Position numbers and translations under genes: made by a program. From assembly GCA_902760595.1 (NCBI GenBank), contig CACWHI010000001.1:124963-188962 (forward strand): a stretch of DNA of 64,000 nucleotides, written 5' to 3'. The notes beneath the pieces were generated by a model, which saw only the letters and a program-made list of their open reading frames with translations, was not told the DNA's origin and made no database searches. How positions within the stretch are numbered: the first letter of the stretch is position 1; each line of letters starts with the position of its first letter. This document shows, one piece after another, positions 9,770-43,139 of the stretch. Source of the stretch: an uncultured Eubacteriales bacterium (GTDB lineage: Bacteria > Bacillota > Clostridia > Christensenellales > Aristaeellaceae).

Positions 9770-11743
9770 ATGCCGTCCCAATCAGAGATGCAGGCCCTGG
9801 TGGACCGCCTGAACGAGGCGGCCAGAGCGTATTATACGTTCGATCAACCGATCATGGCCGATGTGGAATATGACCGGCTTTACGATCAGCTGCTGGCCAT
9901 GGAAAAAGAATCTGGTATGGTTTTACAGGATTCCCCGACTCACCGGGTAGGCGGCGCGCCTCTCAGCGCGTTCGAGCCTCACAGGCACCTGAGCAGGCTG
10001 TGGAGCATGGACAAGGTCCAATCCATGGAAGCCCTGGAGGAGTGGTTCAGCCGGGTACAGCGCCTCCATGACGCTTCCGGTGATCTCCCGCCGATGACCT
10101 ACGGCATTGAATACAAGTTTGACGGACTGACGCTGAACCTGACCTACGATAACGGGCTGCTGGTCGAGGCAGCGACGCGCGGGGACGGTATTACGGGAGA
10201 AGCGGTGCTTCCGCAGGCGCGCACGGTGGCAGGCGTGCCGTTCCGTATTCCCTGGAAGGGCCTGATCGAGGTGCAGGGCGAATGCATCATGCGTCTGTCG
10301 GCGCTGGAAAAATACAACCAGACAGCCAGCGAGCCGCTGAAGAACGCGCGAAACGCCGCGGCCGGCGCGCTGCGGAATCTGGATCCCGCAGTCACGGCAT
10401 CCAGACATCTCAGCGCGTACTTCTACCAGGTGGGTACGATCACTGATCCTCCGTATGATACGCAGGAAGGCATGATCGATTTCTTGCGTGAGCAGGGTTT
10501 CCCCACCAGCCCCTATTTTGCCGCCGCGGACAGCCGTGAGGCCGTCGAAGACGCGATCCGCAGTATCGAAGACAAGCGCAGCAGCCTTGATTTCCTGATC
10601 GACGGCGCGGTCATCAAGATCCGGGAGCAGGCCACGCGTCAGGCGCTCGGGTATACCGACAAATTCCCTCGCTGGGCAGTGGCGTACAAGTTCGAGGCGG
10701 AGGAGAATACGACCCGCATCCTGAATGTCACATGGGAGCTTGGCCGCAGCGGCAAGCTGACCCCGCTGGCGCATGTGGAGCCGGTCGACTTCGCGGGCGT
10801 GACCGTACAGAAGGCCACCCTGAACAACTGGGGCGATATCGTCAGGAAGAAGCTGAAGCTTGGCACGCGGGTATGGATCCGCAGGTCCAACGACGTGATC
10901 CCCGAGATCATGGGCTGTGTGGATGAAGCCGAAGAAGGGACGCCGATCGGGAAGCCGACCCATTGTCCCGCCTGCGGCGCGCCGCTCACGGAGCGCGGGT
11001 CGAACCTGTTCTGTCTGAACCGTGCCGGGTGCAAGCCCCAGGCGGTCATGCGGCTCAAGCATTTTGCTTCCCGGGACGCGATGGATATCGAAACATTTTC
11101 GGAGAAGACCGCCGACCTCTTCTACGACGAGCTGGGAGTTCGCGATCCAGCGGACCTGTATCACCTTGACCCACAGCTCATGGCTGCGCTCAAGGGCTTT
11201 GGCGAGAAGAAGGTACGCAACCTTGAGGACGCGCTGGAGCGCAGCAAGCGCTGCCCGCTGGACCGGTTTTTGCTGGCGATCGGCATCCCGAACGTCGGCA
11301 AGCGGACGGCGCGGGATCTGGCCATCCGGTTCGGCACGCTGGACGGTCTGAAGTCAGCTGACGCTGACACGCTGGCGCAGGTGGACGATATCGGAAGCGT
11401 CATCGCTGAAAGCATCGTCGCCTTTTTCAGCTATCCGGAAAACGCGGAGATGATCGACCGTCTGCTGAAGGCCGGCGTGACGCCGGAAGCGGTGGCAGGT
11501 CCCGCGGCCGGGGCGCTGACGGGTCAGACGGTGGTGGTGACCGGCACGCTGACCAGGTACAGCAGATCAGAGATCGAGCAGCTGATCCGTGACCAGGGAG
11601 GCAGCGCCGCCTCGTCTGTCAGTAAAAAGACGAGCTTTGTCGTGGCCGGTGAAAAAGCGGGCAGCAAGCTGGACAAGGCCAGGCAGCTGGGCATCCCGGT
11701 CCTGACCGAGGAAGAATTTGAGCAAAGACTGAAAGGAAATTGA
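9770..11743 (+). CDS. ligA: NAD-dependent DNA ligase
   Basis: MPSQSEMQALVDRLNEAARAYYTFDQPIMADVEYDRL is the LigA N-terminus. The KxDG adenylation site (EYKFDGLTL), the zinc finger CPACGAPL and a BRCT-like C-terminal domain are present. Confidence 0.9.
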   Translation: MPSQSEMQALVDRLNEAARAYYTFDQPIMADVEYDRLYDQLLAMEKESGMVLQDSPTHRVGGAPLSAFEPHRHLSRLWSMDKVQSMEALEEWFSRVQRLHDASGDLPPMTYGIEYKFDGLTLNLTYDNGLLVEAATRGDGITGEAVLPQARTVAGVPFRIPWKGLIEVQGECIMRLSALEKYNQTASEPLKNARNAAAGALRNLDPAVTASRHLSAYFYQVGTITDPPYDTQEGMIDFLREQGFPTSPYFAAADSREAVEDAIRSIEDKRSSLDFLIDGAVIKIREQATRQALGYTDKFPRWAVAYKFEAEENTTRILNVTWELGRSGKLTPLAHVEPVDFAGVTVQKATLNNWGDIVRKKLKLGTRVWIRRSNDVIPEIMGCVDEAEEGTPIGKPTHCPACGAPLTERGSNLFCLNRAGCKPQAVMRLKHFASRDAMDIETFSEKTADLFYDELGVRDPADLYHLDPQLMAALKGFGEKKVRNLEDALERSKRCPLDRFLLAIGIPNVGKRTARDLAIRFGTLDGLKSADADTLAQVDDIGSVIAESIVAFFSYPENAEMIDRLLKAGVTPEAVAGPAAGALTGQTVVVTGTLTRYSRSEIEQLIRDQGGSAASSVSKKTSFVVAGEKAGSKLDKARQLGIPVLTEEEFEQRLKGN

Positions 11744-11745
11744 TC

Positions 11746-12792
11746 GTGGAGCGCATTATTGAGGATCGGAAATACCTTGATCTCAAGGAATGCACGATGA
11801 GCCGTCTGCGGGAAAGCGAGCTCGATGAGCTGAAAAACCGGCTGACCGCGCAGAACGGGCAGAGCATATTCGGCCGCGGTTCATCTCAGTACTGGACCAA
11901 GGCTTATCAGTACTCCTATGATTACGCTGAACGGCGGAGCGAGGAGTGGCCCTCCCTGCCCAAGCTCCGCGCCGCGGTCAGGAACCGGGTGCCCATCGAG
12001 CTGCCGTTCGTGACCGAACGCGAGGAAGCCATGATCAAGCGGCTGCTGCTGTTTGGCGGCGTCACCCCGCTGTTTACGGAGGACGAGCTGGCAGCGGCCG
12101 ACTCGCTGGTCAAACGGCTCTGGTGCAGCTGCGTGCTGCGGGATAACGGGCAGCTCTTCGTCCGGCTTGCGGACGCGCTGATCAAGCCCATGCTCGCGGC
12201 GGTCGCGGACAACAGCTATCATGAGCTGCGCGCGAGGATGTTCGCCTTTTCCGCGACCCTTCACAGCATGGTCTACCTGCATGGCATGCTGTACGCGGAG
12301 CCGGTCATCGCGAACCTGACGGAGCGTCTGGTACCCGATCACGACGAGACGCATATCCGGCTTCTGTACCGCTACCTGAAGGCGGAGTTCGACTATTGCC
12401 TGGACAGCCAGGGAAATCTGGTACTGATTCACCCCGGACTGATCCATCCCGAGAGGATGCTCGCCTCGATCTCCAACGCGAAGTATCAGGCGACCGATTA
12501 TACCCGGGAGATGATCATCGGCGGTATGAGCGAGCTGCTCAAGGAGGAGTCGGCTGCTGAGGAGATCCTCCGCTCAGAGCTCGGGTTCGCGCTGCAGCCG
12601 GGCTATAACCCCGGCACCATGGTGAACGACGTGAAATTCCTGATCAAGCAGGGCGCGACCCATGAGCAGCTTTCCAGCCTGATCAGCGAAAAGCTCGCAG
12701 TCCGGATGACGCCGCAGATCGAAGCCGCCCTGAAGCGCGCGGAAACGGATACGGTCCGGTGGCAGAGCAGCGTCACCCGGAGACTGAACTGA
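11746..12792 (+). CDS. hypothetical protein (no recognisable domain)
   Basis: 348-codon ORF with coding-like composition, sandwiched by overlap between ligA and rluA. The start is uncertain: TTG at 11740, GTG at 11746 (8 nt after AAAGGA), or ATG at 11797. Confidence 0.45.
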   Translation: MERIIEDRKYLDLKECTMSRLRESELDELKNRLTAQNGQSIFGRGSSQYWTKAYQYSYDYAERRSEEWPSLPKLRAAVRNRVPIELPFVTEREEAMIKRLLLFGGVTPLFTEDELAAADSLVKRLWCSCVLRDNGQLFVRLADALIKPMLAAVADNSYHELRARMFAFSATLHSMVYLHGMLYAEPVIANLTERLVPDHDETHIRLLYRYLKAEFDYCLDSQGNLVLIHPGLIHPERMLASISNAKYQATDYTREMIIGGMSELLKEESAAEEILRSELGFALQPGYNPGTMVNDVKFLIKQGATHEQLSSLISEKLAVRMTPQIEAALKRAETDTVRWQSSVTRRLN

Positions 12793-13625
12793 TGCGCCTG
12801 TATACCGCCCGGATCCCGCAGCAGGTCGGCGAAAAGACCCTGGAAGGCTATCTGGCGCACGCTATGCCGCTGCTGCCGCAGTTTGTGATCAGGGACGCGT
12901 TCGCGCATCACGATGTCAAAATGGACGGGAAGCGCGTTGCGGCCGATCAGGCACCGGCCCCGGGCGCGGAGGTCAGGGTCTATACGCTTTGGGAGGCGGA
13001 GCTGCCTGTGGTCTATGAAGACGGCAACGTCCTCCTGATCAACAAGCCCGCGGGCATCAGCTGTGAAGACGACGGCCGCGGGGGAATGACGGTGCAGAGC
13101 CTTCTGGCGGGAAAGGCAGTGATCTGCCACCGCCTGGATAACCAGACCTGCGGCCTCCTGATCGCGGCCAGGAACGCGGAAACGGAAGCAGCGCTGCTGC
13201 AGGCGTTCAGAGACAGGACGCTGACGAAGCGCTACGAGTGCCTGGTGAAAGGCGTCTTGCGGCCTGCCGCGCAGACGGCGACCGCCTATATCCTGCGGGA
13301 TGAAAGCCTTGGCCGGATGCGCGTGGTCAGCCATGCTTCCCCGGAAGCCCGGCCGATCGCGACGGAATACGAGACGCTGGAAGAAAGCGACGGCATTTCG
13401 CGGCTCCTGGTGACGCTGCTGACCGGCAGGACGCACCAGATCCGCGCCCATCTGGCGGCGCTCCAGCATCCGATCCTCGGGGATGATGTATACGGGGACC
13501 GGGCCTTTAATCAGAGGAGAAATGTCAGGCGGCTGATGCTGTGCTCGACTGAACTGACCCTGAACGCGGGAGGCGTCCTGAGTTATCTGGACGGCCGCGT
13601 TTTCAGGATCAGCGCCCCTTTTTAA
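12792..13625 (+). CDS. RluA-family pseudouridine synthase
   Basis: HRLDNQTCGLLIAARN catalytic-Asp motif and an S4-like N-terminus. The start at 12792 overlaps the upstream stop as TGATG. Confidence 0.75.
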   Translation: MRLYTARIPQQVGEKTLEGYLAHAMPLLPQFVIRDAFAHHDVKMDGKRVAADQAPAPGAEVRVYTLWEAELPVVYEDGNVLLINKPAGISCEDDGRGGMTVQSLLAGKAVICHRLDNQTCGLLIAARNAETEAALLQAFRDRTLTKRYECLVKGVLRPAAQTATAYILRDESLGRMRVVSHASPEARPIATEYETLEESDGISRLLVTLLTGRTHQIRAHLAALQHPILGDDVYGDRAFNQRRNVRRLMLCSTELTLNAGGVLSYLDGRVFRISAPF

Positions 13626-29228: not shown

Positions 29229-30992
29229 ATGGACAAGGAACAGTACCTGAGCGTTTACCGTCACTCACTGGCGCACATTCTGGCTAAAGCGGTGATCGAG
29301 CTTTACGGCAAAGAGGTGCAATACGCCATCGGTCCGCAGATTGCTGACGGTTTCTATTATGACTTCGCGCTTCCCGTCAACGTGACGCAGGATGACTACG
29401 CGAAGATCGAAGAGAAAATGCGCGAGATCATCAAGCGCCGCGAGAACTGGACCCGCAAGGAGGTCTCCAAGGAGGAGGCCCTCGGCATCTTCAAGGGCCA
29501 GAAGTACAAGACGGAGCTCATCAGGGACCTGCCGGACGACGAAATCATTACGATCTACTGGACCGGCGATGATTTTGTGGACCTGTGCCGCGGACCTCAC
29601 GTGGAGAACAGCCAGGAGCTCATGAGCCCAGCTTTCGAGATCCACGCGCTGTCCGGCGCGTACTGGCGCGGCGACGAGCACAACGATATGCTGCAGCGCA
29701 TTTACGTCTGGGCGTTCCCGACCCGCGACGAGCTGAAGGCGCATAAAGCCATGATCCAGGAAGCGCAGGAGCGCGACCATAAAAAGCTCGGCCCGCAGCA
29801 GGAGCTGTTCATGCTGGATCCCACGGCACCCGGTATGCCTTACTGGCTGCCCCGCGGCTGGAAAATGTACAACGCGCTGCTCAGCTTCTGGCGCGGCATC
29901 CATGAGGAGCATGACTATCAGGAGATCTCCGGCCCCGTGCTTTCCAAGAAGGAGCTGTGGGTCACCTCCGGCCACTGGGGACACTACATGGACGGCATGT
30001 TCATCATCCCCGGCGAAAACATGGACAGCCCCGAGACCATGGCGCTGAAGCCCATGAACTGCCCGAACGCCATCAAGGTGTTCATGAGCAAGGGCCGCTC
30101 CTACCGTGAGCTGCCCTTCCGTATCAGCCAGGTGGATGTGATCCACCGCAAGGAAAAGAGCGGCGAGCTGAACGGCCTGTTCCGGGTGCAGGAATTCCAC
30201 CAGGACGACGCGCATATCCTCGTCACGGAGGATCAGATCGCCGACGAGATCAAGGACATCATGTCCATCGCGACCGAGATCTACAATACCTTTGGCCTGA
30301 GCTACACCGCGGAGCTGTCTACCCGCCCCGACAACTACATGGGCGATATCGAAGTGTGGAACCAGGCGGAAGCGGACCTGAAGGCCATCCTGCTGGAGGT
30401 ATACGGCGAGGGGAACTTTGAGATCAACGAGGGCGACGGCGCCTTCTACGGCCCGAAGATCGACCTGCAGATGAAGGACGCGCTCGGCCGTCAGTGGCAG
30501 ATGGGCACGATCCAGCTGGACTTCCAGCTGCCGCTGAACTTTGACATGAAGTATGTGGCTCAGGACGGCACGCAGAAGCGCCCGGTCATGATCCACCGCG
30601 CGATCTTCGGCTCCTTCGAGCGTTTCATCGGCATCCTGACCGAAAACTTCAAGGGCGCGTTCCCCTTCTGGCTCAGTCCCGTACAGGTCGGCATCGTTCC
30701 GATCCGCGTGGAAAACAACGAGTACGCCCATACGGTCGCGGACAGGCTGAAGGCCGCCGGCATCCGCTATGAGGTGGATTACGCCGACAAGAACATGAAC
30801 GAGAAGATCAAGACCTATAAAAAGTACAAGGATCCCTATATCCTGGTACTCGGCGCGAAGGAAGCGGAAACCGGCACGGTATCGCTGACCATCCGCGGGC
30901 GCAAGGAGCAGGTGCACGGCCTGGCGCTGGACGAGTTCGTCGCCATGTGCCAGCGCATGAACCGGGAGCATTCCCTGGAGCTGGAAGCCTGA
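29229..30992 (+). CDS. thrS: threonine--tRNA ligase
   Basis: Class II aaRS motifs and ThrRS-specific sequence (YRHSLAHILA, the second additional domain, an anticodon-binding C-terminus). The start was moved to MDKEQY after AAGGAGG. Confidence 0.85.
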   Translation: MDKEQYLSVYRHSLAHILAKAVIELYGKEVQYAIGPQIADGFYYDFALPVNVTQDDYAKIEEKMREIIKRRENWTRKEVSKEEALGIFKGQKYKTELIRDLPDDEIITIYWTGDDFVDLCRGPHVENSQELMSPAFEIHALSGAYWRGDEHNDMLQRIYVWAFPTRDELKAHKAMIQEAQERDHKKLGPQQELFMLDPTAPGMPYWLPRGWKMYNALLSFWRGIHEEHDYQEISGPVLSKKELWVTSGHWGHYMDGMFIIPGENMDSPETMALKPMNCPNAIKVFMSKGRSYRELPFRISQVDVIHRKEKSGELNGLFRVQEFHQDDAHILVTEDQIADEIKDIMSIATEIYNTFGLSYTAELSTRPDNYMGDIEVWNQAEADLKAILLEVYGEGNFEINEGDGAFYGPKIDLQMKDALGRQWQMGTIQLDFQLPLNFDMKYVAQDGTQKRPVMIHRAIFGSFERFIGILTENFKGAFPFWLSPVQVGIVPIRVENNEYAHTVADRLKAAGIRYEVDYADKNMNEKIKTYKKYKDPYILVLGAKEAETGTVSLTIRGRKEQVHGLALDEFVAMCQRMNREHSLELEA

Positions 30993-31011
30993 GATCCAGG
31001 CCTCATATATA

Positions 31012-31043
31012 AGGCGCTGTCCGGAATCGGGCAGCGCCTTTTA
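31012..31043 (+). terminator. rho-independent terminator after thrS
   Basis: AGGCGCTG-tccggaatcggg-CAGCGCCT followed by TTTT, 20 nt after the thrS stop. Confidence 0.65.
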
Positions 31044-31108
31044 ACATTGCCGTAACATTTTTTTAATCAATAATTAAGAAATGCGCAACATGTCAATGCC
31101 GCTCTTTC

Positions 31109-31137
31109 TTGTTCCGAAAACCCCTGAGTGCTATAAT
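31109..31137 (+). promoter_or_regulatory. putative promoter of the SPFH / membrane / TIR module (extended -10)
   Basis: TTGTTC (31109-31114), a 17-nt spacer, then TGcTATAAT (-10 at 31132-31137). The leader is about 25 nt to the RBS GCAGGAGG and the ATG at 31166. Confidence 0.45.
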
Positions 31138-31165
31138 AGAAACAACACGCGCAGGAGGTTTCCGA

Positions 31166-32836
31166 ATGAGCAAGTTTATGATCGAATGCCCCAAATGTCA
31201 TAAGTATAACGAAGCTGCCAACGGACTGTTCGCGCGGCGGAGCATCCCGTGCCCCTGCGGCAATATCATCAACGTCAGGAACGATAAGATCGTCACCCGC
31301 GTGTGCCCGAACTGCGGCAACACGGTCGTTTACGACCAGTCGGAGGGGACGAAGGCCCGATGCCCGGTCTGCGGCAAGCAGCTGGTTGCGGACGGCGACA
31401 TGAAAAAGCTGATCCATTTCCCGTGCAGAACGTGCGGATGCCTGCTGCAGGCGGATAAAACCGCGGACAGGATCACCTGCGCGCTGTGCGGGGCCGAAAA
31501 CGATATAAAGGCCGAGGTCAGGAAGGCCCAGCTCCGGGAAAAGGGAGAGCCTGCGACCATCGAATACCGCGGCGACCGCAAGACGCTCGTCTGGCGTCAC
31601 CCGATGACAGAGTTCGTCTTTGGGTCTCAGCTGATCGTGCGCGAGGGGCAGGAAGCGATCTTCCTCCGCAACGGGGAAGCGCTCGATTCCTTTGGCCCCG
31701 GCAGGCATACGCTCGAGCTTCCCGCGATGCCCAGGCTGCAGGAGAAGCTGGGCGGCACCGGAGACATACCATTCCGCGCGGAAGTATATTTCGTCAATAT
31801 GCTGACGGTCTTCAACCAGAAATGGGGGACGCCCAACAAAGTCTCCTTCCGGGACCCGGACACGAATATCCCGTTTGATATCGGCGCGTCGGGCGGCTTC
31901 AGCATGCGGATCACGAACCCGCGCAAGGTGCTCGGGCGGATCGTCGGCACGCAGGACGATCTGAAGTCGGAAGATCTGTTTGATATGAACAACGGCTACT
32001 TCCGCCAGACGATCCTCGGCCGGATCAAGGGAAGGATGGCGCAGTGCATCCAGAGTGAAATGATCTCTGTGTTCGAGCTGGATTCCCATCTTGACGTGAT
32101 CTCCCGTTCCATCCAGGACGCGGTGAATGAGGACCTGACTGATTACGGGATCGAGCTCCCGGACTTTACCGTCGTCAATATCGTCGTCCCGGAGGACGAC
32201 CCGAATTATCGGGAACTGAAGTCCATACACGCCAAGAAAGTGCTGGATATGGAGAAGGCCAGGCTGGAGGTCAACGTGCACCGCGTCAGGAATGAGAGTA
32301 TCGTGGCTGACGCGGAAACCGAAGCCGAAGCCCTGCGCATAAAGAAAAAAGCGGAGGCCGACGCCTATGGCTATCAGGCTACCGCGGAAGCCAGGGAAAT
32401 GCGTGAGAAGGGATATACCTACCAGCAGGAGACCCAGCGGAAAACCGCCATGGCCGCGATGGAAAACGGCGGAGGCGCAGCGGCGGCAGGCGGCATCGCG
32501 GCGGATATGCTGCAGCTGGGCGTGGGGCTCAGCGCTGCAAAACAGGTTTCTGAGCTGACCAAGGCCGCTTTACAGCCTGAGGCCGACTCAGCTGAAGGCT
32601 GGGACTGCGCCTGCGGCCAGAAGGGGAACCGCCTCGCCTTCTGCCCGAATTGCGGCGCGAAAAAGCCGGTGTCCGCGGTCACATGGGACTGCGCCTGCGG
32701 CCAGAGAGGAAATACCCTGATGTACTGCCCGAACTGCGGTGCCAGACGTCCCGGCGCGGATACCTGGGACTGCAGCTGCGGCCAGACCGGAAATAAACTG
32801 CCCTTCTGCCCGTCCTGCGGCAGAAAGCGTCCCTGA
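31166..32836 (+). CDS. SPFH/band-7 domain protein flanked by multiple zinc ribbons (3 N-terminal, 3 C-terminal)
   Basis: N-terminus CPKC..CPC, CPNC..CPVC, CRTC..CALC. A central SPFH-like region (LVWRHPMTEFVFGSQLIVREGQEAIFLRNGE...FRAEVYFVNM...) is followed by a coiled coil. The C-terminus has a triple WDCxCGQxGNxLxFCPxCGxxRP repeat. No TM helix is evident. The start was moved to the ATG at 31166, which follows the RBS. Confidence 0.7.
   Translation: MSKFMIECPKCHKYNEAANGLFARRSIPCPCGNIINVRNDKIVTRVCPNCGNTVVYDQSEGTKARCPVCGKQLVADGDMKKLIHFPCRTCGCLLQADKTADRITCALCGAENDIKAEVRKAQLREKGEPATIEYRGDRKTLVWRHPMTEFVFGSQLIVREGQEAIFLRNGEALDSFGPGRHTLELPAMPRLQEKLGGTGDIPFRAEVYFVNMLTVFNQKWGTPNKVSFRDPDTNIPFDIGASGGFSMRITNPRKVLGRIVGTQDDLKSEDLFDMNNGYFRQTILGRIKGRMAQCIQSEMISVFELDSHLDVISRSIQDAVNEDLTDYGIELPDFTVVNIVVPEDDPNYRELKSIHAKKVLDMEKARLEVNVHRVRNESIVADAETEAEALRIKKKAEADAYGYQATAEAREMREKGYTYQQETQRKTAMAAMENGGGAAAAGGIAADMLQLGVGLSAAKQVSELTKAALQPEADSAEGWDCACGQKGNRLAFCPNCGAKKPVSAVTWDCACGQRGNTLMYCPNCGARRPGADTWDCSCGQTGNKLPFCPSCGRKRP
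32600..32833 (+). repeat. three tandem in-frame 69-84-nt repeats encoding zinc-ribbon modules
   Basis: TGGGACTGCGCCTGCGGCCAGA...TGCCC.AA.TGCGG... occurs three times. It encodes WDCACGQKGNRLAFCPNCGAKKP, WDCACGQRGNTLMYCPNCGARRP and WDCSCGQTGNKLPFCPSCGRKRP. Confidence 0.8.
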
Positions 32837-32863
32837 CGGCGGACCTACGGGAGGAAACGAGCA

Positions 32864-33364
32864 ATGAGAACAAACGGTAAGAAGCTGCTTGCCTTTCTAT
32901 TGGGCTTTCTGGCGATCAACGCGCTGATCCTGCTGCTCCCCTTCAGGAAGACAGCGCTGTTCATTGTGGTCTGGGCTGTACTGGCTGTGGCTTGCCTTTC
33001 TGCCGGTATCGTGATGTTGTTTAAAGGAGCCGCGAAAGGGAAAAAGGCCGGGACCAGCGACAGACAGATCGCGGCCCGGACGGCGGATATGAAGAGCCTG
33101 AGGGACAAAGCCCAGGCGCTCTGCGCATCCATTCAGGATCCTGGCAACGCGAAGGCGCTGAAAGAGCTTGCGGACGAGCTGCGCTATTCGGACCCGGTGT
33201 CCGGCGCCGCGACGGCTTCCTATGAGAAGCGGATCGATACGCTGCTTGAAAGCATCGCCCATCATGACGACGCAGCGGAGCGGAGCGAGCTGATCCGCCG
33301 CGCGACGGCCCTGGTCAGAGAGCGCGCGTCCGCTGCGAAAACGAATAAATCACTGAATTCCTGA
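32864..33364 (+). CDS. small membrane protein (2 predicted TM helices plus a cytoplasmic helical tail)
   Basis: LLAFLLGFLAINALILLL and LFIVVWAVLAVACLSAGIVMLF hydrophobic segments. The RBS GGGAGGA is present, and the gene sits 27 nt after the SPFH gene. Confidence 0.5.
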   Translation: MRTNGKKLLAFLLGFLAINALILLLPFRKTALFIVVWAVLAVACLSAGIVMLFKGAAKGKKAGTSDRQIAARTADMKSLRDKAQALCASIQDPGNAKALKELADELRYSDPVSGAATASYEKRIDTLLESIAHHDDAAERSELIRRATALVRERASAAKTNKSLNS

Positions 33365-33381
33365 TCGGAGGAACGGGAAGA

Positions 33382-36300
33382 ATGGCTTTTATCAAGTGCA
33401 AGATCTGCGGCGGCGACGTCGAGGTGGTCCAGGGGAAAAACTGGGGAACATGCGACTACTGCGGCTCCCGCGTGACCTTCCCCAAGGATTCGACGGAGCA
33501 GCGCATCAACCTTCTCAACCGCGCGGACGCCTTCCGGCGCCAGAACGAGTTTGACAAGGCGATCAGCGCGTACGAGCGGATCCTGGAGGACGACCAGACG
33601 GACGCCGAGGCGCACTGGGGCGCGGCGATTTCCCGCTTTGGCATTGAGTACGTCGAGAATCCGGTCACCTTCGAGCGGAAGCCGACGCTGCACCGCCTGC
33701 AGACGACCTCCATCCTCGCCGACGAGGACTATAAGGCGGCGATCGAGAACGCCCCGGACGATGAGACGCGGAAGCTGTATGAGGCCCAGGCCCAGGAGAT
33801 CGCGGATATCCAGAAGAAGGTCCTGGAACAGAGCGAGCGGGAGGATCAGTTCGATATCTTTATTTCATATAAGGAATCGGACGCCAACGGCGAACGCACC
33901 CGGGACAGCGTGATCGCCTTCCAGATCTATACCGAGCTGGTCAAGGAGGGCTACAACGTATTCTTCGCCAAGGAGACGCTCAAGGGGCGGCTGGGCGACG
34001 AATACGAGCCGATCATCTTTTCCGCCCTGCGCTCCTCCCAGGTCATGATCCTGATCGGCACGAAGAAAGAGTACTTTGAGGCGGAATGGGTGCGCAACGA
34101 ATGGACGCGCTACCTGGACCTCATGCGCCAGGAAAAGGATAAGCCCCTGGATGACCAGATCCCGCGGCAGCTGATCCCCTGCTACCGGGATATGGACGCA
34201 TATGAGCTGCCCGTGGAGCTCAACATGCTCCAGAGCATGAATATGAATTCCATCTCCTTCCTCCAGGACCTGCTGTCCGGGATCAGGAAGATCATGGAAG
34301 GCGGCAACCAGGAGACCTATAAGTATAAAACGGACGAGATCTCCCGCCTGCTGCAGCGCGCCATGAACCAGGCGGAGCTGGGTGAGTTCGGCCGCGCCGA
34401 TTCCCTGGCGGAAAAGGTCCTGGAGTCCGACCCGAACAACGCGACGGCGCAGATGGTCAAGCTGCTGGTGCAGCTGAAGGTCAATACGCCGGACGAGCTG
34501 GTCAAGCAGAAGCAGCCCCTGACGCACAACCGCCTGTACATCATGGCCTGCCGGAACGCCAAGGGCGCGCAGAAGAAGCGTTACGAAGGCTATAACAAGA
34601 AGATCATCGCCAATATCGAGGCGGCGGAGAACCAGAAGAAGCTGGACACGATCCTGAAAAAGATCGAGGGGATCAAAGCGCGCAGCAAGAAGCTCGCCGC
34701 CGACGATGACGAAGGCTTCCGCAAGCTGAGCGAGGAGGTCCGCGAGCAGGTCACGGCGTTGGAGCAACTGGGGATTTTCGGCGGAGCGGATGAGAAGGCC
34801 AAAGAGTTCGCGAAGCTTGCGGATGATATCGATCACGACCTGAAGGTGCGGATCGAGGACCGCCAGCGCCGTATTGAGGAAGAAAAGCAGCGCCAGCAGG
34901 CGATCCGCGAAGAGGAAGCCCGGAAAAAGGCGGAAAAGGAAAAGGCGGAGCGCGAGGCGAAGGAAGCCGCCGAAAAGGCGGAAAGGGAACGCCTGGCCAA
35001 GCTTCGCCGCCGGAAGGCGAGAAAGCGTCTGGCGGCCTTCCTGGCCGTTCTGGCGATCGCGGCGGCCATCACCGCCTATAAGCTGTATTTTGAAAACAAA
35101 CTGGCCTATGCCGCGGCTGTGGATACCATAGAGCAGTCCACGGAGAGCCGTCAGCTGGATTATGCGGAGACGATCCTCGACCGGCTGGGCAGCGACTATG
35201 AGGATGTGAGCGCGCGCAAACAGCAGGTATCCGCTGATCGGCGCTTCCTCAGCAATTACCATCGCCAGGCATATGCTGATTATATGGCGCTGGACGAAAA
35301 GTACCGCACGCCCGGGAAGCTTGACTGGTATGAGAAAGAATACCAGAGCGGTCTCAGCATGATCTCCGGTCAGCAGTTCGAAAACGCGATCGCGCTGCTG
35401 AAGAACATCGATTACTACAAGGACGCGCCGGACCAGGTCCGAAGGGCGTATCTGCTGATGGGCGACGCGGCCATGGCGCGTGATCAGTACACGGACGCGG
35501 CGTCTGCCTATCGTTCCGCCGGGGATTATCAGGATGCCGCCAGGAAGATCAGCCAGACGGAGGCCGCGATCCTGTTTGCGCAGGGAAGGTACGCGGACGC
35601 CTATGCCGCGTACAAGGCGCTGGCCGGTGAATACTTCACGCCCAAGCATAAGGCGTGGTACGACCAGCAGTACGATAACGCGAAAAAGTACCTGGACAGC
35701 GGAGAGTACCAGAAGGCGATCGAAGCCTTCGACGCGATCAGGTATTACAGCGAAACGGGCCGCAATGCCGCAGAGCAGCTGCAGAACGCGCATTACAGCT
35801 ACGCCGCGCAGTCGAAGGATCCGGCAGTTGCGCGCGAACAGTACGCGCTGGCGGGAAATTACCGCGACAGCGAAAGCCTGATCAGGCAGCTGGACGCGGA
35901 CGATCTGTTCGAGGCCGGCAGGTACGAGCAGGCCTACCAGCTCTATCAGACGCTTGACGAAAAATACCAGACGCATAAAGCGGATTATACCGCCTGGTTT
36001 GACGCGGCCAACAAGGCGATGACAGAGAACGGCGATCTTGAGCTGGCGATCAGGAGCTTCCGGAACATCACATATATGGACAGCGCCGAGTACCCGGTGA
36101 AGCAGAGGCTGCAGACCGCTTACCTGACCTACGCGCAGTCGCTCCTGCAGCCGACGGGGAAGATTGATGAAACCGCCGTCACTAGAGCGAAGACCTATTT
36201 CGACCTGGCAGGCGTTTCCGGCGATGACCAGGTGAGCCGCTATTATTACGAGACCGGCGTCAAAGCGCTGGAGAATGACGATGTGCGGACGGCTGAAAAG

Positions 36301-36963
36301 GCGTTTGCCGGCGCGGAGGGATATCCTGACACGGATCAGCTGATCAAAGCGCACTATTATGAATCGGCGAAAACGGCCATGGCGGGGGATAACGCCGAGG
36401 AAGCGGCGGAGCTGCTGCGGCGTGCCGGCGGTTATCAGGACGCCGACGCGCTTCTGAAACAGCTGGAGGCTTATGTGAACGCGAAGGAGCTGCTGAAGCA
36501 GCAAAAGATGATCGAAGCCATGCGCGCTTTCACGGAAGCCGGCGACTGTATGGACGCGCCGACACTGGCGCAGCGCTGCGGGGAGCTGGTATATAACGGG
36601 GCCATGAAGCAGCCGCTCGCAGAGCGCCTGGAGATCCTCCGGCAGCTGGGCGATTTCAAGGACGCGCAGGCGCAGGTAAAAGCCGCGGAGGACGCCTACG
36701 AGCAGGCGGAGCAGGCGTACAGCGCCGGTCAGTACGCAGAGGCTGCACGCCTGTTTGAATCGCTCGACAACTACAGGGAAGCAAAATCAAAGCTGGATCT
36801 GAGCCTATACTGCTATGCCGGCGAGCTGCTGATCAAAGAGGATTACGCAGCTGCGTTGGACATATATGAATCCCTTGGCGATTATCTGAACAGCCGCAGC
36901 AATGCAGCCACCTGCCAGGCAAAGCTCGCGGAGTCTCAGCAAGGAAGTGAAAACGGCGACTGA
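33382..36963 (+). CDS. zinc-ribbon / TIR-domain protein with a single TM helix and a C-terminal TPR-like repeat domain of about 630 aa
   Basis: N-terminus CKIC..CDYC. The TIR region is DIFISYKESD...SSQVMILIGTKKEYFEAEWVRNEW, with the S.WC..E[LW] segment retaining Glu. A KE-rich coiled coil ends in LRRRKARKR, followed by the TM helix LAAFLAVLAIAAAITAYKLYF (about nt 35010-35080). The remainder is Y/A/D/Q-rich 35-80-aa repeats. The RBS GGAGGAA is present. Confidence 0.7.
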   Translation: MAFIKCKICGGDVEVVQGKNWGTCDYCGSRVTFPKDSTEQRINLLNRADAFRRQNEFDKAISAYERILEDDQTDAEAHWGAAISRFGIEYVENPVTFERKPTLHRLQTTSILADEDYKAAIENAPDDETRKLYEAQAQEIADIQKKVLEQSEREDQFDIFISYKESDANGERTRDSVIAFQIYTELVKEGYNVFFAKETLKGRLGDEYEPIIFSALRSSQVMILIGTKKEYFEAEWVRNEWTRYLDLMRQEKDKPLDDQIPRQLIPCYRDMDAYELPVELNMLQSMNMNSISFLQDLLSGIRKIMEGGNQETYKYKTDEISRLLQRAMNQAELGEFGRADSLAEKVLESDPNNATAQMVKLLVQLKVNTPDELVKQKQPLTHNRLYIMACRNAKGAQKKRYEGYNKKIIANIEAAENQKKLDTILKKIEGIKARSKKLAADDDEGFRKLSEEVREQVTALEQLGIFGGADEKAKEFAKLADDIDHDLKVRIEDRQRRIEEEKQRQQAIREEEARKKAEKEKAEREAKEAAEKAERERLAKLRRRKARKRLAAFLAVLAIAAAITAYKLYFENKLAYAAAVDTIEQSTESRQLDYAETILDRLGSDYEDVSARKQQVSADRRFLSNYHRQAYADYMALDEKYRTPGKLDWYEKEYQSGLSMISGQQFENAIALLKNIDYYKDAPDQVRRAYLLMGDAAMARDQYTDAASAYRSAGDYQDAARKISQTEAAILFAQGRYADAYAAYKALAGEYFTPKHKAWYDQQYDNAKKYLDSGEYQKAIEAFDAIRYYSETGRNAAEQLQNAHYSYAAQSKDPAVAREQYALAGNYRDSESLIRQLDADDLFEAGRYEQAYQLYQTLDEKYQTHKADYTAWFDAANKAMTENGDLELAIRSFRNITYMDSAEYPVKQRLQTAYLTYAQSLLQPTGKIDETAVTRAKTYFDLAGVSGDDQVSRYYYETGVKALENDDVRTAEKAFAGAEGYPDTDQLIKAHYYESAKTAMAGDNAEEAAELLRRAGGYQDADALLKQLEAYVNAKELLKQQKMIEAMRAFTEAGDCMDAPTLAQRCGELVYNGAMKQPLAERLEILRQLGDFKDAQAQVKAAEDAYEQAEQAYSAGQYAEAARLFESLDNYREAKSKLDLSLYCYAGELLIKEDYAAALDIYESLGDYLNSRSNAATCQAKLAESQQGSENGD

Positions 36964-37026
36964 GGAGAACACGGACCCTGGCAGGGGTAATCCAAACAGT
37001 ATGTGTAAAAGGAGACTGAGCAGACA

Positions 37027-38469
37027 GTGAAGTACGACGTATGTATCATCGGCTGCGGCGTGATCGGCGCCGCGGCGGCGTTTGAGCTTTCGAAATACGA
37101 TTGCAGCGTCCTGATCCTGGAGAAGGAGAACGACGTGGCCATGGGCTCTTCCAGGGCAAACAGCGCCATCATTCACGCGGGATATGATCCGAAGCCTGGG
37201 ACGCTGATGGCGCGGCTGAACGTGGAAGGCAACGCCATGGCGGAGCAGCTTTGCAAGGACCTGAGCGTGCCCTTCGCGCGGATCGGCTCGCTGGTCCTGG
37301 CTTTCTCCGAGGAAGAGGAAGCGACCATCAGGATGCTCTACGATCGCGGCGTCGCGAACGGCGTGCCGGGGCTGCGCATCATTGACGCGGCTGAGATTCG
37401 GGAAATGGAGCCGCAGGTCAGCAAGGAGGCGCGGGCCGCGCTGTACGCGCCGAGCGCCGGGATCATCACGCCCTGGGAATATACGCTCGCGTTCGCGGAA
37501 ACGGCGGTAAGAAACGGCGCGAAGCTGGTGCTGAACGCGCCGGTGACCGGCATCAGGGCGCTCAGCGACGGCGGTTACAAGCTGGCTACGCCCAAGGTCG
37601 ATTTTGAAGCCGCTTACGTCATCAACGCCGCCGGCGTGCACAGCGGCGAGATCCATGAAATGGTGGCGGCCAAGACATTCACTGTCATGCCGAACCGCGG
37701 GGAGTATTACGTGATGGACAAGGCGGAATGCTTCCGCGCCAATCACGTGCTGTTCCAGTGCCCGAACCAGGACGGCAAGGGCGTCCTCGTCACGCCGACC
37801 ATGGACCACAACCTGCTGGTCGGCCCGAACGCCGTCGGCGTAGAGGACGGGGACCGCGTGAACAATACCGCCGAAGGCATGGCCTTTGTGCGCGAAAAAG
37901 CGAGCAAGTCCGTACCGGGCATCAACTATCGCAACGCGATCCGCAATTTCGCGGGCATCCGCGCGAATACGGACAAGGATGAGTTCCAGATCAGCATCGC
38001 GGCGGATCGTTTCATTGACCTCGCCGGCATCAAGTCGCCGGGCCTGTCGTCGGCTCCGGCCATCGCGCTGGAGGCGGTCAGGCTGCTGAATCAGTGCGGC
38101 TTTGCTCCCGACAAAAAGGCGCATCCGATCACGACCCGTGAAAAGAAGCGCTTCCGGTATATGAACGATGAGGAACGCCGGGAGGCGATCCGCGAGAATC
38201 CGCTCTATGGCCGCGTGATCTGCCGCTGCGAAACGGTCACCGAGGGCGAGATCGTGGACGCGATCCACAGCCCGATCCCTCCCTGCAGCGTGGACGGCGT
38301 CAAGCGCCGTGCGGGAAGCGGCATGGGCCGCTGCCAGGGCGGCTTCTGCGGCCCGCGCATCGTGGATATCCTGGCGCGCGAGCTGAAGCTGGACCCGATG
38401 GAGATCACGCAGGACGGCGTCGGAAGTCAGCTGCTGCTGGCTGAAACGAAGCGGGAGGTGACTGAATAA
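37027..38469 (+). CDS. glpA: FAD-dependent glycerol-3-phosphate dehydrogenase-like oxidoreductase (GlpA-type, BFD-like C-terminus)
   Basis: YDVCIIGCGVIGAAAAFEL dinucleotide-binding motif and the C-terminal RCETVTEGEI...GRCQGGFCGP BFD-like 2Fe-2S motif. It is the first gene of the conserved clostridial three-gene set. GTG start. Confidence 0.75.
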   Translation: MKYDVCIIGCGVIGAAAAFELSKYDCSVLILEKENDVAMGSSRANSAIIHAGYDPKPGTLMARLNVEGNAMAEQLCKDLSVPFARIGSLVLAFSEEEEATIRMLYDRGVANGVPGLRIIDAAEIREMEPQVSKEARAALYAPSAGIITPWEYTLAFAETAVRNGAKLVLNAPVTGIRALSDGGYKLATPKVDFEAAYVINAAGVHSGEIHEMVAAKTFTVMPNRGEYYVMDKAECFRANHVLFQCPNQDGKGVLVTPTMDHNLLVGPNAVGVEDGDRVNNTAEGMAFVREKASKSVPGINYRNAIRNFAGIRANTDKDEFQISIAADRFIDLAGIKSPGLSSAPAIALEAVRLLNQCGFAPDKKAHPITTREKKRFRYMNDEERREAIRENPLYGRVICRCETVTEGEIVDAIHSPIPPCSVDGVKRRAGSGMGRCQGGFCGPRIVDILARELKLDPMEITQDGVGSQLLLAETKREVTE

Positions 38470-40946: not shown

Positions 40947-41510
40947 TTAATCGCTGTCCGGTCCGGTCTGGCCGAGCTCCCAATGGAGGCGGCAGAGGCT
41001 TGTATAGCTCTCGTTCCCGCCGAGTACGACCTGCTCGCCGGTCTTGATGACCTTTCCGTTCAACAGTCGCGCGTTGAAGGTCGCTTTGCGTCCGCACCAG
41101 CAGATGGTCTTGACCTCCTCAATGGAGTCCGCCCAGGCCATCAGCCATTTGCTGCCTTCAAAGAAGTTGCCCTTGAAATCCGCGCGCAGACCATAGGCGA
41201 CAACGGGCACGTTGTCGTGATCAACGATATGCACCAGCTGTTCCACCTGCGCCTTGGTCAGAAACTGGGCCTCGTCCACGATGAGACAGGCATAGTCCCG
41301 GACGTTGATCTGATCGAGCTCCTCGATATAGGCGCACGGGGCGGAGAGGCCGCACCTGGACCCGACGATGCGTGCGCCGTCGCGCGTATCGAGACGGGGC
41401 TTCAGGATCAGGGCCTTCTGGCCTCTTTCCTGGTAATTGTACTGGACCATGATCGCGTTGGCGGTTTTGCTGGATCCCATCGCGCCGTAACGGAAGTAGA
41501 GCTTGGCCAT
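40947..41510 (-). CDS. tdk: thymidine kinase
   Basis: YGAMGSSKTANAI P-loop and a C-terminal zinc ribbon (CWCGRKATFNAR...C); 187 aa. Confidence 0.85.
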   Translation of the reverse strand: MAKLYFRYGAMGSSKTANAIMVQYNYQERGQKALILKPRLDTRDGARIVGSRCGLSAPCAYIEELDQINVRDYACLIVDEAQFLTKAQVEQLVHIVDHDNVPVVAYGLRADFKGNFFEGSKWLMAWADSIEEVKTICWCGRKATFNARLLNGKVIKTGEQVVLGGNESYTSLCRLHWELGQTGPDSD

Positions 41511-41530
41511 TGTGCAGTCTCCTCATGGAA

Positions 41531-41563
41531 AGAGGCTGCTCATCGCAGCCTCTTTAATTCGTT
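41531..41563. terminator. hairpin between tdk and the upstream peptidoglycan-binding gene (possible terminator or attenuator)
   Basis: AAAGAGGCTGC-tcatc-GCAGCCTCTTT stem-loop about 25 nt downstream (minus sense) of the 41586 gene end. The U-tract is weak. Confidence 0.35.
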
Positions 41564-41585
41564 GTTTGTTGCGCCGCTGATCCGA

Positions 41586-42977
41586 TCAGTCGAGATTCAG
41601 CTTGTGGTAGAGGGCGGCGAAGGTGTTATAGCCGACCTTGCCATCCTGCTTCAGTCCGGCTTCCTTCTGGAACTGCTTGACAGCGGTTTCGGTCTGCTTG
41701 CCGAACTTGCCATCGATGTCGCCGAGATCGATCATGTGCAGCTGATACAGCAGGTTCTGCAGGTTCGTGACCGCGTAGCCGGAATCGCCGCGCTTCAGGG
41801 TCTTGTACACCGCGCCGGTGGTCGGATCGACGAAGTCGTCGGAGGCCTGGCCGCCCTGGGAGAGATCGACGTCCATCAGCTTGGCCCAGGTCGCGGCGCC
41901 GATGATGCCGTCAGCCTTGAGGCCTTTGTTGGTCTGGAAGAGCTTCACAGCCGCGAGGGTCTTGCTGCCGAACACACCGTCGGCAGAACCGGTCATGGCG
42001 CCAGCGGAGATCAGGTAGTTCTGAGCGCTGCGTACATACTGGCCGTGGCTGCCGTACTTGAGCTTCGGACGGTCATAGGGAGAGGTGGAGGTACCATCCA
42101 GTTCATTGATGGCTTCTTCATAGCTCTCGCCGGCCATGCAGGCTTTGGTGTTGGCGTCCAGCCGCCCGGTCGTGTTGATCTTGTTCTTCTTCTGGAAATC
42201 GTACAGGGCCTTGTAGGTGGCGTCATCGAAGTAGCCGATGTTCGTGATGGCGGACATATAGTTGTCATCCTTCAGCATCTGCTGGAGAATATAGACGTCA
42301 TAGCCGCGCATGCCGGAGCCCAGGGTACGGCGGATCTTCTTGGACTTGCTCCAGTAAGAGCCGGGGGAAGACTCTGCCTTTTTCAGGGCGGTCCAGGTCT
42401 TTTCGCCCACGACGCCGTCCGCGCTCAGACCGACAGCCGCCTGGAAGGCCTTAACGGCTTCCTTGGTGGTATTGTCATAGGTCTGGTCGAACACCTTGTT
42501 GGGGTTCAGGAAGTAAAGCTTCTGGAGCATCTTCTGAACCTCGCCGACGCTGGGACCCTTATCACCGGGACGGATGGTATTGAAGCCGACGGTCGCGATG
42601 ACGGTGTCGGATTCATCCTTGATCTCCACGTCGTCGACCTTGAAATCGCTCTTTTTCATGGAGTCGGACGCGACCAGCTTGGCCCAGGTGTTGCCGCCGA
42701 TTTTGCCGTCGGCCTTCAGGTTGTTGCGCTTCTGGAAAGCGACAACAGCCTTGTACATACCGGAACCGAAACTGCCATCGATGTTGCCGGTATAGTACTC
42801 ATAGTAGGCAAGCCGGGTCTGCATGTACTTGATGTCGTTGTCCGCGCCATCCGGGAAGGTGTCAGTTTTATCCTTCATGCCGCGCTTCAGAACGTGGTCA
42901 TAGGTTTCCGCGCCGGCCACGGCGGAGACGAGAAGGGTCAGAAGCAATACCAGTGCAATCCAGGTAAATTTCTTCAT
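41586..42977 (-). CDS. secreted protein with about six tandem peptidoglycan-binding (PG_binding_1) repeats
   Basis: Signal peptide MKKFTWIALVLLLTLLVSAVAGA. Repeated GxxVxxLQxxL...DGxFGxxTxxAVxxFQxxxGLxxDGxxGxxTW units occur six times; no catalytic domain was recognised. Confidence 0.7.
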   Translation of the reverse strand: MKKFTWIALVLLLTLLVSAVAGAETYDHVLKRGMKDKTDTFPDGADNDIKYMQTRLAYYEYYTGNIDGSFGSGMYKAVVAFQKRNNLKADGKIGGNTWAKLVASDSMKKSDFKVDDVEIKDESDTVIATVGFNTIRPGDKGPSVGEVQKMLQKLYFLNPNKVFDQTYDNTTKEAVKAFQAAVGLSADGVVGEKTWTALKKAESSPGSYWSKSKKIRRTLGSGMRGYDVYILQQMLKDDNYMSAITNIGYFDDATYKALYDFQKKNKINTTGRLDANTKACMAGESYEEAINELDGTSTSPYDRPKLKYGSHGQYVRSAQNYLISAGAMTGSADGVFGSKTLAAVKLFQTNKGLKADGIIGAATWAKLMDVDLSQGGQASDDFVDPTTGAVYKTLKRGDSGYAVTNLQNLLYQLHMIDLGDIDGKFGKQTETAVKQFQKEAGLKQDGKVGYNTFAALYHKLNLD

Positions 42978-43139
42978 AGCGTAATTACCTCCATTCAGGA
43001 TTGTGAGGCAAGTATAGCATCAATTGTTTGCTAATGTGTTACGAGTTCATGTTTGAAACGTTAATTTCAAGCGAAAAATGTAAAACGAAAAAACGAAGAA
43101 GGATATAAAAACTGCTCTGTGTCAGTCATAATTCCGCAA

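Follow-up and report, generated by a model that had tools for sequence, protein, structure and literature searches.

A predicted membrane-spanning TIR protein encoded in an SPFH operon of gut Clostridia is a candidate cell-surface sensor

Introduction

Toll/interleukin-1 receptor (TIR) domains are an immunity currency common to animals, plants and bacteria, and all bacterial TIR systems characterised to our knowledge sense intracellular events. Could a bacterial TIR domain also be wired to the cell surface? The question is raised by a gene at positions 33382..36963 (+ strand) of a 64,000-nucleotide stretch of DNA, hereafter the window, from an uncultured Eubacteriales bacterium (assembly GCA_902760595.1, contig CACWHI010000001.1, positions 124,963 to 188,962; the source host is a member of the Clostridia with about 60% GC). 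An initial annotation, made from the letters of the window alone, proposed that the product, here called the TIR-TM protein, has the layout of a Toll-like receptor (TLR) in inverted order: a cytoplasmic half made of a zinc ribbon (ZnR), tetratricopeptide repeats (TPR) and a TIR domain, then a single transmembrane (TM) helix and an extracytoplasmic half of repeats. On balance, the evidence presented here inclines us, if only slightly, towards reading the TIR-TM protein as an outside-in sensor of the envelope or surface, scaffolded by an SPFH protein and answering through an NAD⁺-cleaving TIR domain, a function that we infer from domain content and gene neighbourhood.

Results

A TIR domain with an NADase-type active-site motif

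The gene is an ATG-to-stop open reading frame (ORF) encoding 1193 aa, with a GGAGG Shine-Dalgarno sequence 9 nt 5' of the ATG at 33382; all features of this gene and of its operon given below lie on the same strand. An identical copy of the protein and full-length homologs at 52-66% identity are present in other assemblies, and the ORF is therefore a real gene. An antisense ORF (33865..36504) was rejected as a shadow of this GC-rich gene, homologs existing for the + frame.

The N-terminal half begins with a zinc ribbon (residues 1-32, 33382..33477) whose cysteines 6, 9, 24 and 27 form a CxxC-x14-CxxC motif; of these, C6, C9 and C24 do not vary, and C27 is kept in at least 90% of sequences. The next part, residues 39-151 (33496..33834), comprises TPR-like helices, of which residues 44-82 match TPR, and then a β-hairpin followed by a long helix. 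In the AlphaFold2 (AF2) model of residues 1-320 (pLDDT 87, pTM 0.82) the zinc ribbon is made of four short β-strands, and the following segment, helical at 39-85, extended at 88-103 and helical again at 115-151, packs with the TIR domain as one unit. The cytoplasmic-type ZnR-TPR-TIR half that had been proposed is thus borne out by the CxxC motif, the TPR matches, the Pfam match described next and the model.

The TIR domain itself spans residues 157-305 (33850..34296). Pfam TIR_2 (PF13676) matches residues 159-255 with E=3.5e-9 and 37.6 bits, above its gathering cut-off of 28 bits, and the AF2 model shows five alternating β-α units (βA 159-162, αA, βB 193-195, αB, βC 221-226, αC 235-252, βD 263-268, αD, βE and αE 293-305). 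In a Foldseek search of the PDB, solved TIR domains were matched at probability 1.0, the best being SARM1, SPARTA TIR-APAZ, TIR-STING, Roq1, Hydra TRR-2 and MyD88/MAL, with TRAM also among them. The initial annotation had predicted a TIR fold at residues 157-290 from strings that are indeed present, DIFISYKESD starting at residue 158 and EWVRNEW ending at 241, and this fold is what the profile, the model and the structural matches all point to.

Searching the PDB by sequence returned only TPR matches and weak TIR matches, and residues were mapped with a TIR-only profile of the family. Its motif W-V-K/R-N-E-W aligned onto WCLDEL or WCLMEL of plant TIR domains (3JRN, 3OZI, 7VU8). In the window protein the motif reads W236-V-R-N-E240-W241 (34087..34104), with the codon of the candidate catalytic glutamate at 34099-34101; this Glu, previously placed at about residue 240, is at exactly that position. 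Across 105 N-terminal modules (N-modules) from 79 species loci, Y163, K164, E209, P210, W236, V237, N239, E240 and W241 are invariant (105/105). In plant TIR domains the Glu aligned with E240 is known as the catalytic residue, and SARM1 has a W-x3-E of the same kind. Judged by these alignments, the predicted cytoplasmic TIR domain carries an intact NADase-type active-site motif, W236-x3-E240, and would be expected to have NADase activity.

A single TM helix with the TIR domain predicted inside

A linker at residues 306-549 (34297..35028), predicted to be cytoplasmic, separates the TIR domain from the membrane. It consists of a second TPR-like unit, recognised from a TPR_14/TPR_19 match seen in relatives at about 322-362, and of a K/E/R/A-rich stalk ending RRRKARKR. 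The stalk, whose composition over residues 471-552 is 21% E, 18% A, 18% R and 17% K, is probably helical or coiled-coil.

The Kyte-Doolittle profile has one strong peak, at residues 550-570 (LAAFLAVLAIAAAITAYKLYF, 35029..35091), with a maximum of 2.09, and no other 19-aa window exceeds 1.6; the hydropathy scan also found no N-terminal hydrophobic signal sequence. The first 17 of the 21 residues are uncharged and the only lysine, K567, lies near the C-terminal end. The flanks are markedly asymmetric, with 10 K/R in the 15 residues on the N-terminal side and 1 K/R plus 3 D/E in the 15 on the C-terminal side. The pattern is a family trait, one hydrophobic helix with a K/R-rich N-flank being found at about residues 500-680 in 119 of the 120 best homologs. 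The single helix and its positive-inside bias, both part of the initial annotation, are therefore well founded. Relatives carry PG_binding_1, SH3_3, BspA-type leucine-rich-repeat (LRR)/DUF285 and RCC1 domains C-terminal of the helix, and the position of these wall-binding and surface modules lends independent support to an N-in/C-out orientation, as had been suggested. The TIR-TM protein is thus predicted to be bitopic, with its N-terminus in the cytoplasm and its C-terminus outside. What does not survive is the view of this order as an inverted oddity, since N-in/C-out is generally known as the usual topology of Gram-positive bitopic sensors.

The ectodomain is a predicted TPR-type solenoid

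Residues 571-1193 (35092..36960) are predicted to form an extracytoplasmic TPR-type α-solenoid. Tandem repeats of about 110 aa start near residues 601, 711 and 821 (about 601-930, nt 35182-36171) and are followed by shorter 'GDYxD[AS]' helix-pair units. In a sliding Smith-Waterman scan, local alignments of the 110-aa repeats scored 14-17 standard deviations above shuffled controls, while a self-BLAST of the ectodomain gave no off-diagonal high-scoring segment pairs. The claim of some 630 residues of extracytoplasmic repeats thus stands as to the repeats and needs correction as to the length, which is 623 aa. The AF2 model of this part (pLDDT 92.9) is all α, with 33 helices arranged in helix-turn-helix pairs, and the nearest folds found by Foldseek are the TPR superhelices of IFT-A, CTR9, SKI3, OGT and APC/C. 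The net charge is -34.

This solenoid is common only to the window protein and seven relatives, P0002-P0008 (52-66% identity). All seven have about 180 aa of repeats that the window protein is missing, with internal gaps near residues 960 and 1135; the gaps suggest a loss of repeats by recombination.

The TIR-TM gene closes a conserved three-gene operon

Two genes precede the TIR-TM gene. The first (31166..32836) encodes a YdjI-like SPFH protein (Pfam Band_7_1, E=5.5e-40) that has N-terminal zinc ribbons, the Band_7_1 domain and three tandem C-terminal zinc ribbons, and that lacks a TM helix. Its start is the ATG at 31166, preceded by AGGAGG and used in gene calls on identical contigs (556 aa); the mechanical ORF begins at a TTG at 31109. 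The three C-terminal ribbons (32600-32836) are near-identical (WDCACGQKGNRLAFCPNCGAKKP, WDCACGQRGNTLMYCPNCGARRP and WDCSCGQTGNKLPFCPSCGRKRP), and several CxxC pairs lie in the N-terminal part; between loci, the CxxC count of the SPFH partners varies from 0 to 13. An architecture of band-7 plus C-terminal zinc ribbons has been described for the Bacillus subtilis ydj operon, and a role as chaperone or as scaffold for assembling membrane-linked complexes has been proposed for YdjI-type SPFH proteins (PMC11237479).

The second gene (32864..33364) encodes a small membrane protein of 166 aa, with two N-terminal TM helices and a C-terminal helical domain, that has no family match in Pfam, NCBIfam or PADLOC. 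It is shortened here, homologs usually having about 230 aa and three to four TM helices. Only the C-terminal helical domain (LADELRYSDPVS…) is conserved, and identity to the 226-aa neighbour of P0006 is 65%. The gaps in the operon measure 27 nt between the SPFH stop and the start of the small gene and 17 nt between the small gene and the TIR-TM gene, and each gene has a Shine-Dalgarno sequence (GGGAGG for the small one). No terminator-like site on the + strand lies between the three genes, the one such site (32876-32893) being inside the small ORF; a promoter-like site is found upstream of the SPFH gene at 31047-31074, and the promoter and terminator scans were otherwise uninformative. The + strand AT skew is high (0.15-0.26) at window positions 30000-38000 compared with the rest of the window, a peak that coincides with the A-rich coding strand (Lys, Glu and Ala codons) of the SPFH and TIR genes.

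The association extends well beyond the window. An SPFH homolog is present in 51 of the 79 species loci, always on the same strand and at a median gap of 724 bp from the nearest TIR gene, and in 21 of the 27 loci (78%) that have full flanks, meaning at least 6 kb on both sides of the locus. The small membrane gene directly follows the SPFH gene in 39-46 loci. Of the 894 neighbour genes, grouped by unbiased all-against-all clustering, only the SPFH and small TM families recurred: the next cluster (12 loci) is a generic ABC ATPase and was rejected as a partner, and a 6-locus cluster proved to be an antisense shadow ORF. The trio is also found in identical and in 53-58%-identical relatives within the same syntenic housekeeping neighbourhood (PPK1, metallophosphoesterase, ThrS, the operon, GlpA-like oxidoreductases, HAD, RadA), and again around P0118, which is distantly related and has another ectodomain and unrelated neighbours. 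These results show a conserved three-gene operon whose last place is taken by the TIR-TM gene, in one to three paralogs.

The P0118 locus, from a human gut metagenome (L007, 1-17500), has a TIR-TM-DUF6273 gene beside a type I restriction-modification (R-M) system with AbiGi, so that in this species the module does adjoin defence genes. An HSP70/MreB-like gene, a 198-aa ORF and an MZB-domain gene come before the TIR-TM-DUF6273 gene; after it come a 200-aa ORF, two half-size Band_7_1 genes and unannotated ORFs of 211 aa and 277 aa. Farther along the window, a 683-aa ORF without a Pfam match (40983-43034, +) overlaps a gene for a 463-aa PG_binding_1 protein (41586-42977, -). Gene calling on an identical contig chose the latter, and the former is probably a shadow ORF.

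A large family with a constant N-module and variable ectodomains

How widespread is this architecture? An exhaustive profile search over 1.84 billion representatives found the N-module in at least 4,535 clusters at 50% identity (E≤1e-30), starting almost always at residue 1; a word-indexed search gave at least 2,609 significant homologs, and, counting one genome per species, at least 553 species carry the module. The architecture is therefore not rare, contrary to what had been supposed. Its description as possibly new seems to hold: in the openly accessible full-text literature we found no account of the TIR-TM architecture or of a link between SPFH and TIR, and PADLOC has no match for it. 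Public annotations seen for the family read 'hypothetical protein' or 'DUF6273 domain-containing protein'. Among the matches listed, carriers are mostly gut or rumen Clostridia of humans and animals (Christensenellales, Oscillospiraceae, Lachnospiraceae, Ruminococcus, Acutalibacteraceae), with others in Lentisphaerae/Victivallales, Synergistales, Holophagales, Phycisphaerales, Petrotogaceae and Gastranaerophilaceae, and the best N-module match, at 60% identity, is to metagenome-assembled genomes (MAGs) of Christensenellales. Cultured carriers are [Clostridium] aerotolerans DSM 5434, Lacrimispora sp. AGF001 and Lachnospiraceae bacterium NC2008.

The N-module stays at about 47-60% identity across phyla, with the zinc ribbon in 115 of the 120 best homologs, and the C-termini differ in domain type. 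Ectodomains in the family include TPR, DUF6273/C-lectin, LRR, RCC1, SH3 and PG-binding kinds; DUF6273, which 99 of the 120 top hits and 27 of 108 locus genes carry, always sits at the extreme C-terminus. In P0042 (1165 aa) an ectodomain of DUF285 and BspA-type LRR stands behind ZnR-TPR-TIR-TM, which by its predicted domains makes this protein the closest bacterial mimic of the TLR set, in reversed order. Many loci hold two or three tandem TIR-TM genes (121 genes in 79 loci), and the N-module is the better conserved part in 8 of 10 paralog pairs (median identity 75%, against 53% for the ectodomain). The operon with SPFH and small TM genes, the TPR-type nature of the ectodomain, the variety of ectodomains in the family and the hypermutated relatives described next all go beyond the initial annotation.

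Some relatives are targets of diversity-generating retroelements

We scanned all loci for diversity-generating retroelements (DGRs), that is, for near-repeats with adenine-specific mismatches. Complete cassettes, consisting of variable repeat (VR), bAvd, template repeat (TR) and RVT_1 reverse transcriptase (RT), were found in two loci, L087 (334-4761) and L018 (10001-14934), and in both the target is the C-terminal DUF6273 domain of a TIR-TM family member. L087, from an uncultured Eubacterium sp., has an 829-aa TIR-TM-DUF6273 gene at 334-2823 with the VR at 2676-2801, bAvd at 2958-3347, the TR at 3383-3508 and the RT at 3667-4761; all of its TR/VR mismatches (21/21) fall at TR adenines. L018, from an uncultured Christensenella sp., has the same cassette layout. 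Within 10001-13070 of this locus a TIR-TM ORF (10001-12385) and a DUF6273 ORF (12144-13070) overlap in different frames; the target gene may be truly split, or the MAG may contain a frameshift or misassembly at this point. The C-type-lectin-like fold is the canonical DGR scaffold. DUF6273 has been assigned such a fold (PMC10743442).

The window holds no TR/VR pair, and its TIR-TM protein has no DUF6273 domain. Two further candidates were rejected. The mismatches of a pair in L032 are T-only and occur at several 11-nt offsets; the pair resembles a tandem repeat rather than a DGR. DGR-driven microdiversity was also considered for P0073, a DUF6273-type cluster of 1,081 members, where variation proved to be scattered and the C-terminus identical in 7 members.

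Discussion

How might an outside-in sensor of this kind work? The ectodomain would bind or sense something at the cell surface, such as the state of the wall or envelope, a phage, or a component of a foreign cell; this would alter how the stalks cluster or are oriented in a membrane patch organised by SPFH, and cytoplasmic TIR domains would be brought together. As a rule, TIR enzymes are active only once assembled. The assembled domains would then cleave NAD⁺, leading to growth arrest, to abortive infection or to release of an ADP-ribose-derived signal. In this scheme we infer the direction of signalling, the role of the SPFH protein, the biological trigger and the part of the ectodomain as the sensor. 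In the clustering of neighbours, genes for known signal-receiving effectors (SIR2, SLOG or Macro) do not recur near the family loci, which makes it more likely that the TIR domain is an effector than a Thoeris-like signal generator, although a receiver may be encoded remotely. The targeting of DUF6273 in family members by DGR cassettes supports a receptor-like diversification.

Several observations weigh against the sensor. PADLOC returned no match for the TIR, SPFH or small protein, not even with its generic TIR defence model, and NCBIfam gave sub-threshold noise only. In the window and in close relatives the operon lies in the syntenic housekeeping region described above and in no defence island. 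The N-module has no match in 50,697 phage and 72,556 plasmid records and occurs on 2 of 2.9 M IMG/VR contigs (L089 and L090), which may be host flanks of prophage predictions; such absence from phages and plasmids is not what one expects of mobile anti-phage systems and would agree with a stable function in physiology or the envelope. An RT or DGR is present in only 2 of the 79 loci, the abundant P0073 shows no hypervariation in its DUF6273 domain, and the window ectodomain, a plain TPR solenoid, has no identifiable ligand site. Finally, the TIR domain of TLR15 also has a conserved Glu at the aligned position. In animals, the TIR domains of TLRs are commonly held to be adaptors without enzyme activity, so that the motif alone is no proof of catalysis.

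A bolder form of the proposal, which we put forward tentatively and hold to be rather doubtful, is that the family are bacterial cell-surface immune receptors, with a constant ZnR-TPR-TIR unit in SPFH microdomains, interchangeable extracellular recognition domains and an NAD⁺-cleaving answer. Diversity would arise as domains are swapped, as paralogs form tandem arrays and, in some lineages, as DGRs hypermutate the C-lectin domain, and phages or competitors would be detected from outside, before genome entry. If this were true, the family would be a prokaryotic functional counterpart of TLRs and antigen receptors that arose independently in gut anaerobes. The plainer proposal of an outside-in sensor would already make this very widespread family the first prokaryotic candidate for TIR signalling from outside in, with an ectodomain that is highly variable and sometimes hypermutated, and it would provide a concrete client for the poorly understood YdjI-type SPFH proteins.

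The core-genome synteny, the absence from phages and plasmids and the lack of a PADLOC match speak against a classical mobile anti-phage system and keep two other explanations alive. The first, which we judge unlikely, is a non-enzymatic scaffold: the TIR domain would be a homotypic assembly or anchoring module, as in TLR/MyD88, of a structural, adhesive or wall-organising surface protein docked to an SPFH lattice. Stable chromosomal synteny and absence from mobile elements agree with this, as do the chaperone or assembly role proposed for the YdjI-type partner (PMC11237479), the adhesin-type ectodomains of some relatives (BspA-LRR, SH3, PG-binding) and the Foldseek matches to the adaptor TIR domains MyD88, MAL and TRAM. 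However, the invariance of W236, N239 and E240 in 105 members of several phyla is hard to explain without catalysis, since a purely scaffolding TIR domain needs no such Glu, and the best structural neighbours are the enzymatic TIR domains of SARM1, SPARTA and Roq1.

Less likely again is an inside-out module for membrane stress related to PspA/YdjI, in which the SPFH protein and a 4-TM protein would sense damage from inside, the TIR-TM protein would answer by metabolic shut-down or surface remodelling, and the ectodomain would be an effector or anchor rather than a sensor. The YdjI architecture of the SPFH partner and the core-genome context of the operon are in line with such a module, and the three proteins are all membrane-associated or zinc-ribboned, suggesting a sub-membrane complex. 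Against this, homologs of PspA, YdjG and YdjH (TPM) do not recur beside the operon, and extreme ectodomain variability, paralog arrays and DGR targeting are hallmarks of ligand recognition and not of a generic anchor.

It is very improbable that the hydrophobic stretch is buried or amphipathic and the whole protein cytoplasmic, like TIR-TPR or STAND-type defence proteins. TPR repeats like those of the ectodomain are common in cytoplasmic sensors, but the 21-residue segment reaches 2.09 on the Kyte-Doolittle scale, its position and K/R-rich N-flank are kept in 119 of 120 homologs, and relatives bear peptidoglycan-binding and SH3_3 wall modules on its C-terminal side. Many carriers being gut or rumen commensals, one might also think of a virulence or immunomodulatory protein delivered to host cells against TLR signalling (like BtpA/TcpB, TcpC or TirS), but this can hardly apply to a membrane-anchored protein of 1193 aa that has no signal peptide, carries its TIR domain N-terminal of the sole TM helix and after a cytoplasmic-type zinc ribbon, and is encoded in an operon with SPFH.

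How does the outside-in sensor compare with known systems? With Toll-like and IL-1 receptors it shares a predicted single-pass layout, a repeat-built ectodomain (even LRR/DUF285 in P0042) and a TIR domain on the cytoplasmic side. TLRs, however, are type I proteins with an N-terminal LRR ectodomain and a C-terminal TIR domain, whereas this protein is predicted to be type II, with an N-terminal TIR domain and no signal peptide. The window ectodomain is a TPR solenoid and not LRR, and the TIR domain, preceded by the ZnR-TPR unit, keeps the invariant enzyme-type W-x3-E; the gene lies in an operon with SPFH, and there is no sign of adaptor TIR partners. The protein is thus not a TLR, and the likeness is one of analogy. 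Enzymatic TIR proteins (SARM1, plant TNL and TIR-only proteins, SPARTA TIR-APAZ, Thoeris ThsB, AbTir) have the same fold and the same position of the catalytic Glu, and the fusion of helical repeats to TIR may recall the ARM-TIR autoinhibition of SARM1. Those proteins, in contrast, are soluble, sense intracellular cues and have neither a TM helix with an ectodomain nor an SPFH partner. PADLOC on the operon proteins and the neighbour clustering found no ThsA-like, Ago or SAVED partners; with no adjacent ThsA-type gene (SIR2, SLOG or Macro) and no match to a ThsB model, the operon does not belong to Thoeris. The secreted virulence TIR proteins BtpA/TcpB, TcpC and TirS are small and soluble with a C-terminal TIR domain, whereas here a predicted-cytoplasmic TIR domain is part of a large, membrane-anchored protein.

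DGR-diversified putative antigen sensors of conflict systems have been described (PMC10907252; PMC7159879), and those linked to TIR effectors belong to systems of the STAND-NTPase or MoxR-vWA type in multicellular proteobacteria and cyanobacteria (PMC10907252). Some TIR-TM family members likewise fuse a DGR-hypermutated, C-lectin-type DUF6273 to a TIR domain, those of L087 and L018 being DGR targets and the window protein not; the family differs in being predicted to span the membrane, in its SPFH link and in being centred on gut Clostridia, and we found no report of DGR-diversified sensors in a membrane-spanning, SPFH-linked TIR family. The upstream gene resembles that of B. subtilis ydjFGHI in combining Band_7_1 with C-terminal zinc ribbons and no TM helix, but PspA, YdjG (NTF2-like) and YdjH (TPM) are replaced here by an unannotated 2-4-TM protein and TIR-TM genes, and no PspA or TPM neighbour is present in the window or recurrent in the 79 loci. 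Closest in topology are the bitopic sensors of Gram-positive bacteria. PASTA kinases (PrkC/PknB) and RsgI anti-sigma factors are N-in/C-out proteins with a cytoplasmic output domain, a single TM helix and, outside, a sensor that consists of repeats or binds carbohydrate, and the TIR-TM protein would share this topology with a TIR output in place of a kinase or an anti-sigma factor. A sensor-effector built on TIR would be of a known kind, and what appears to be new is its membrane-receptor architecture and its SPFH partner.

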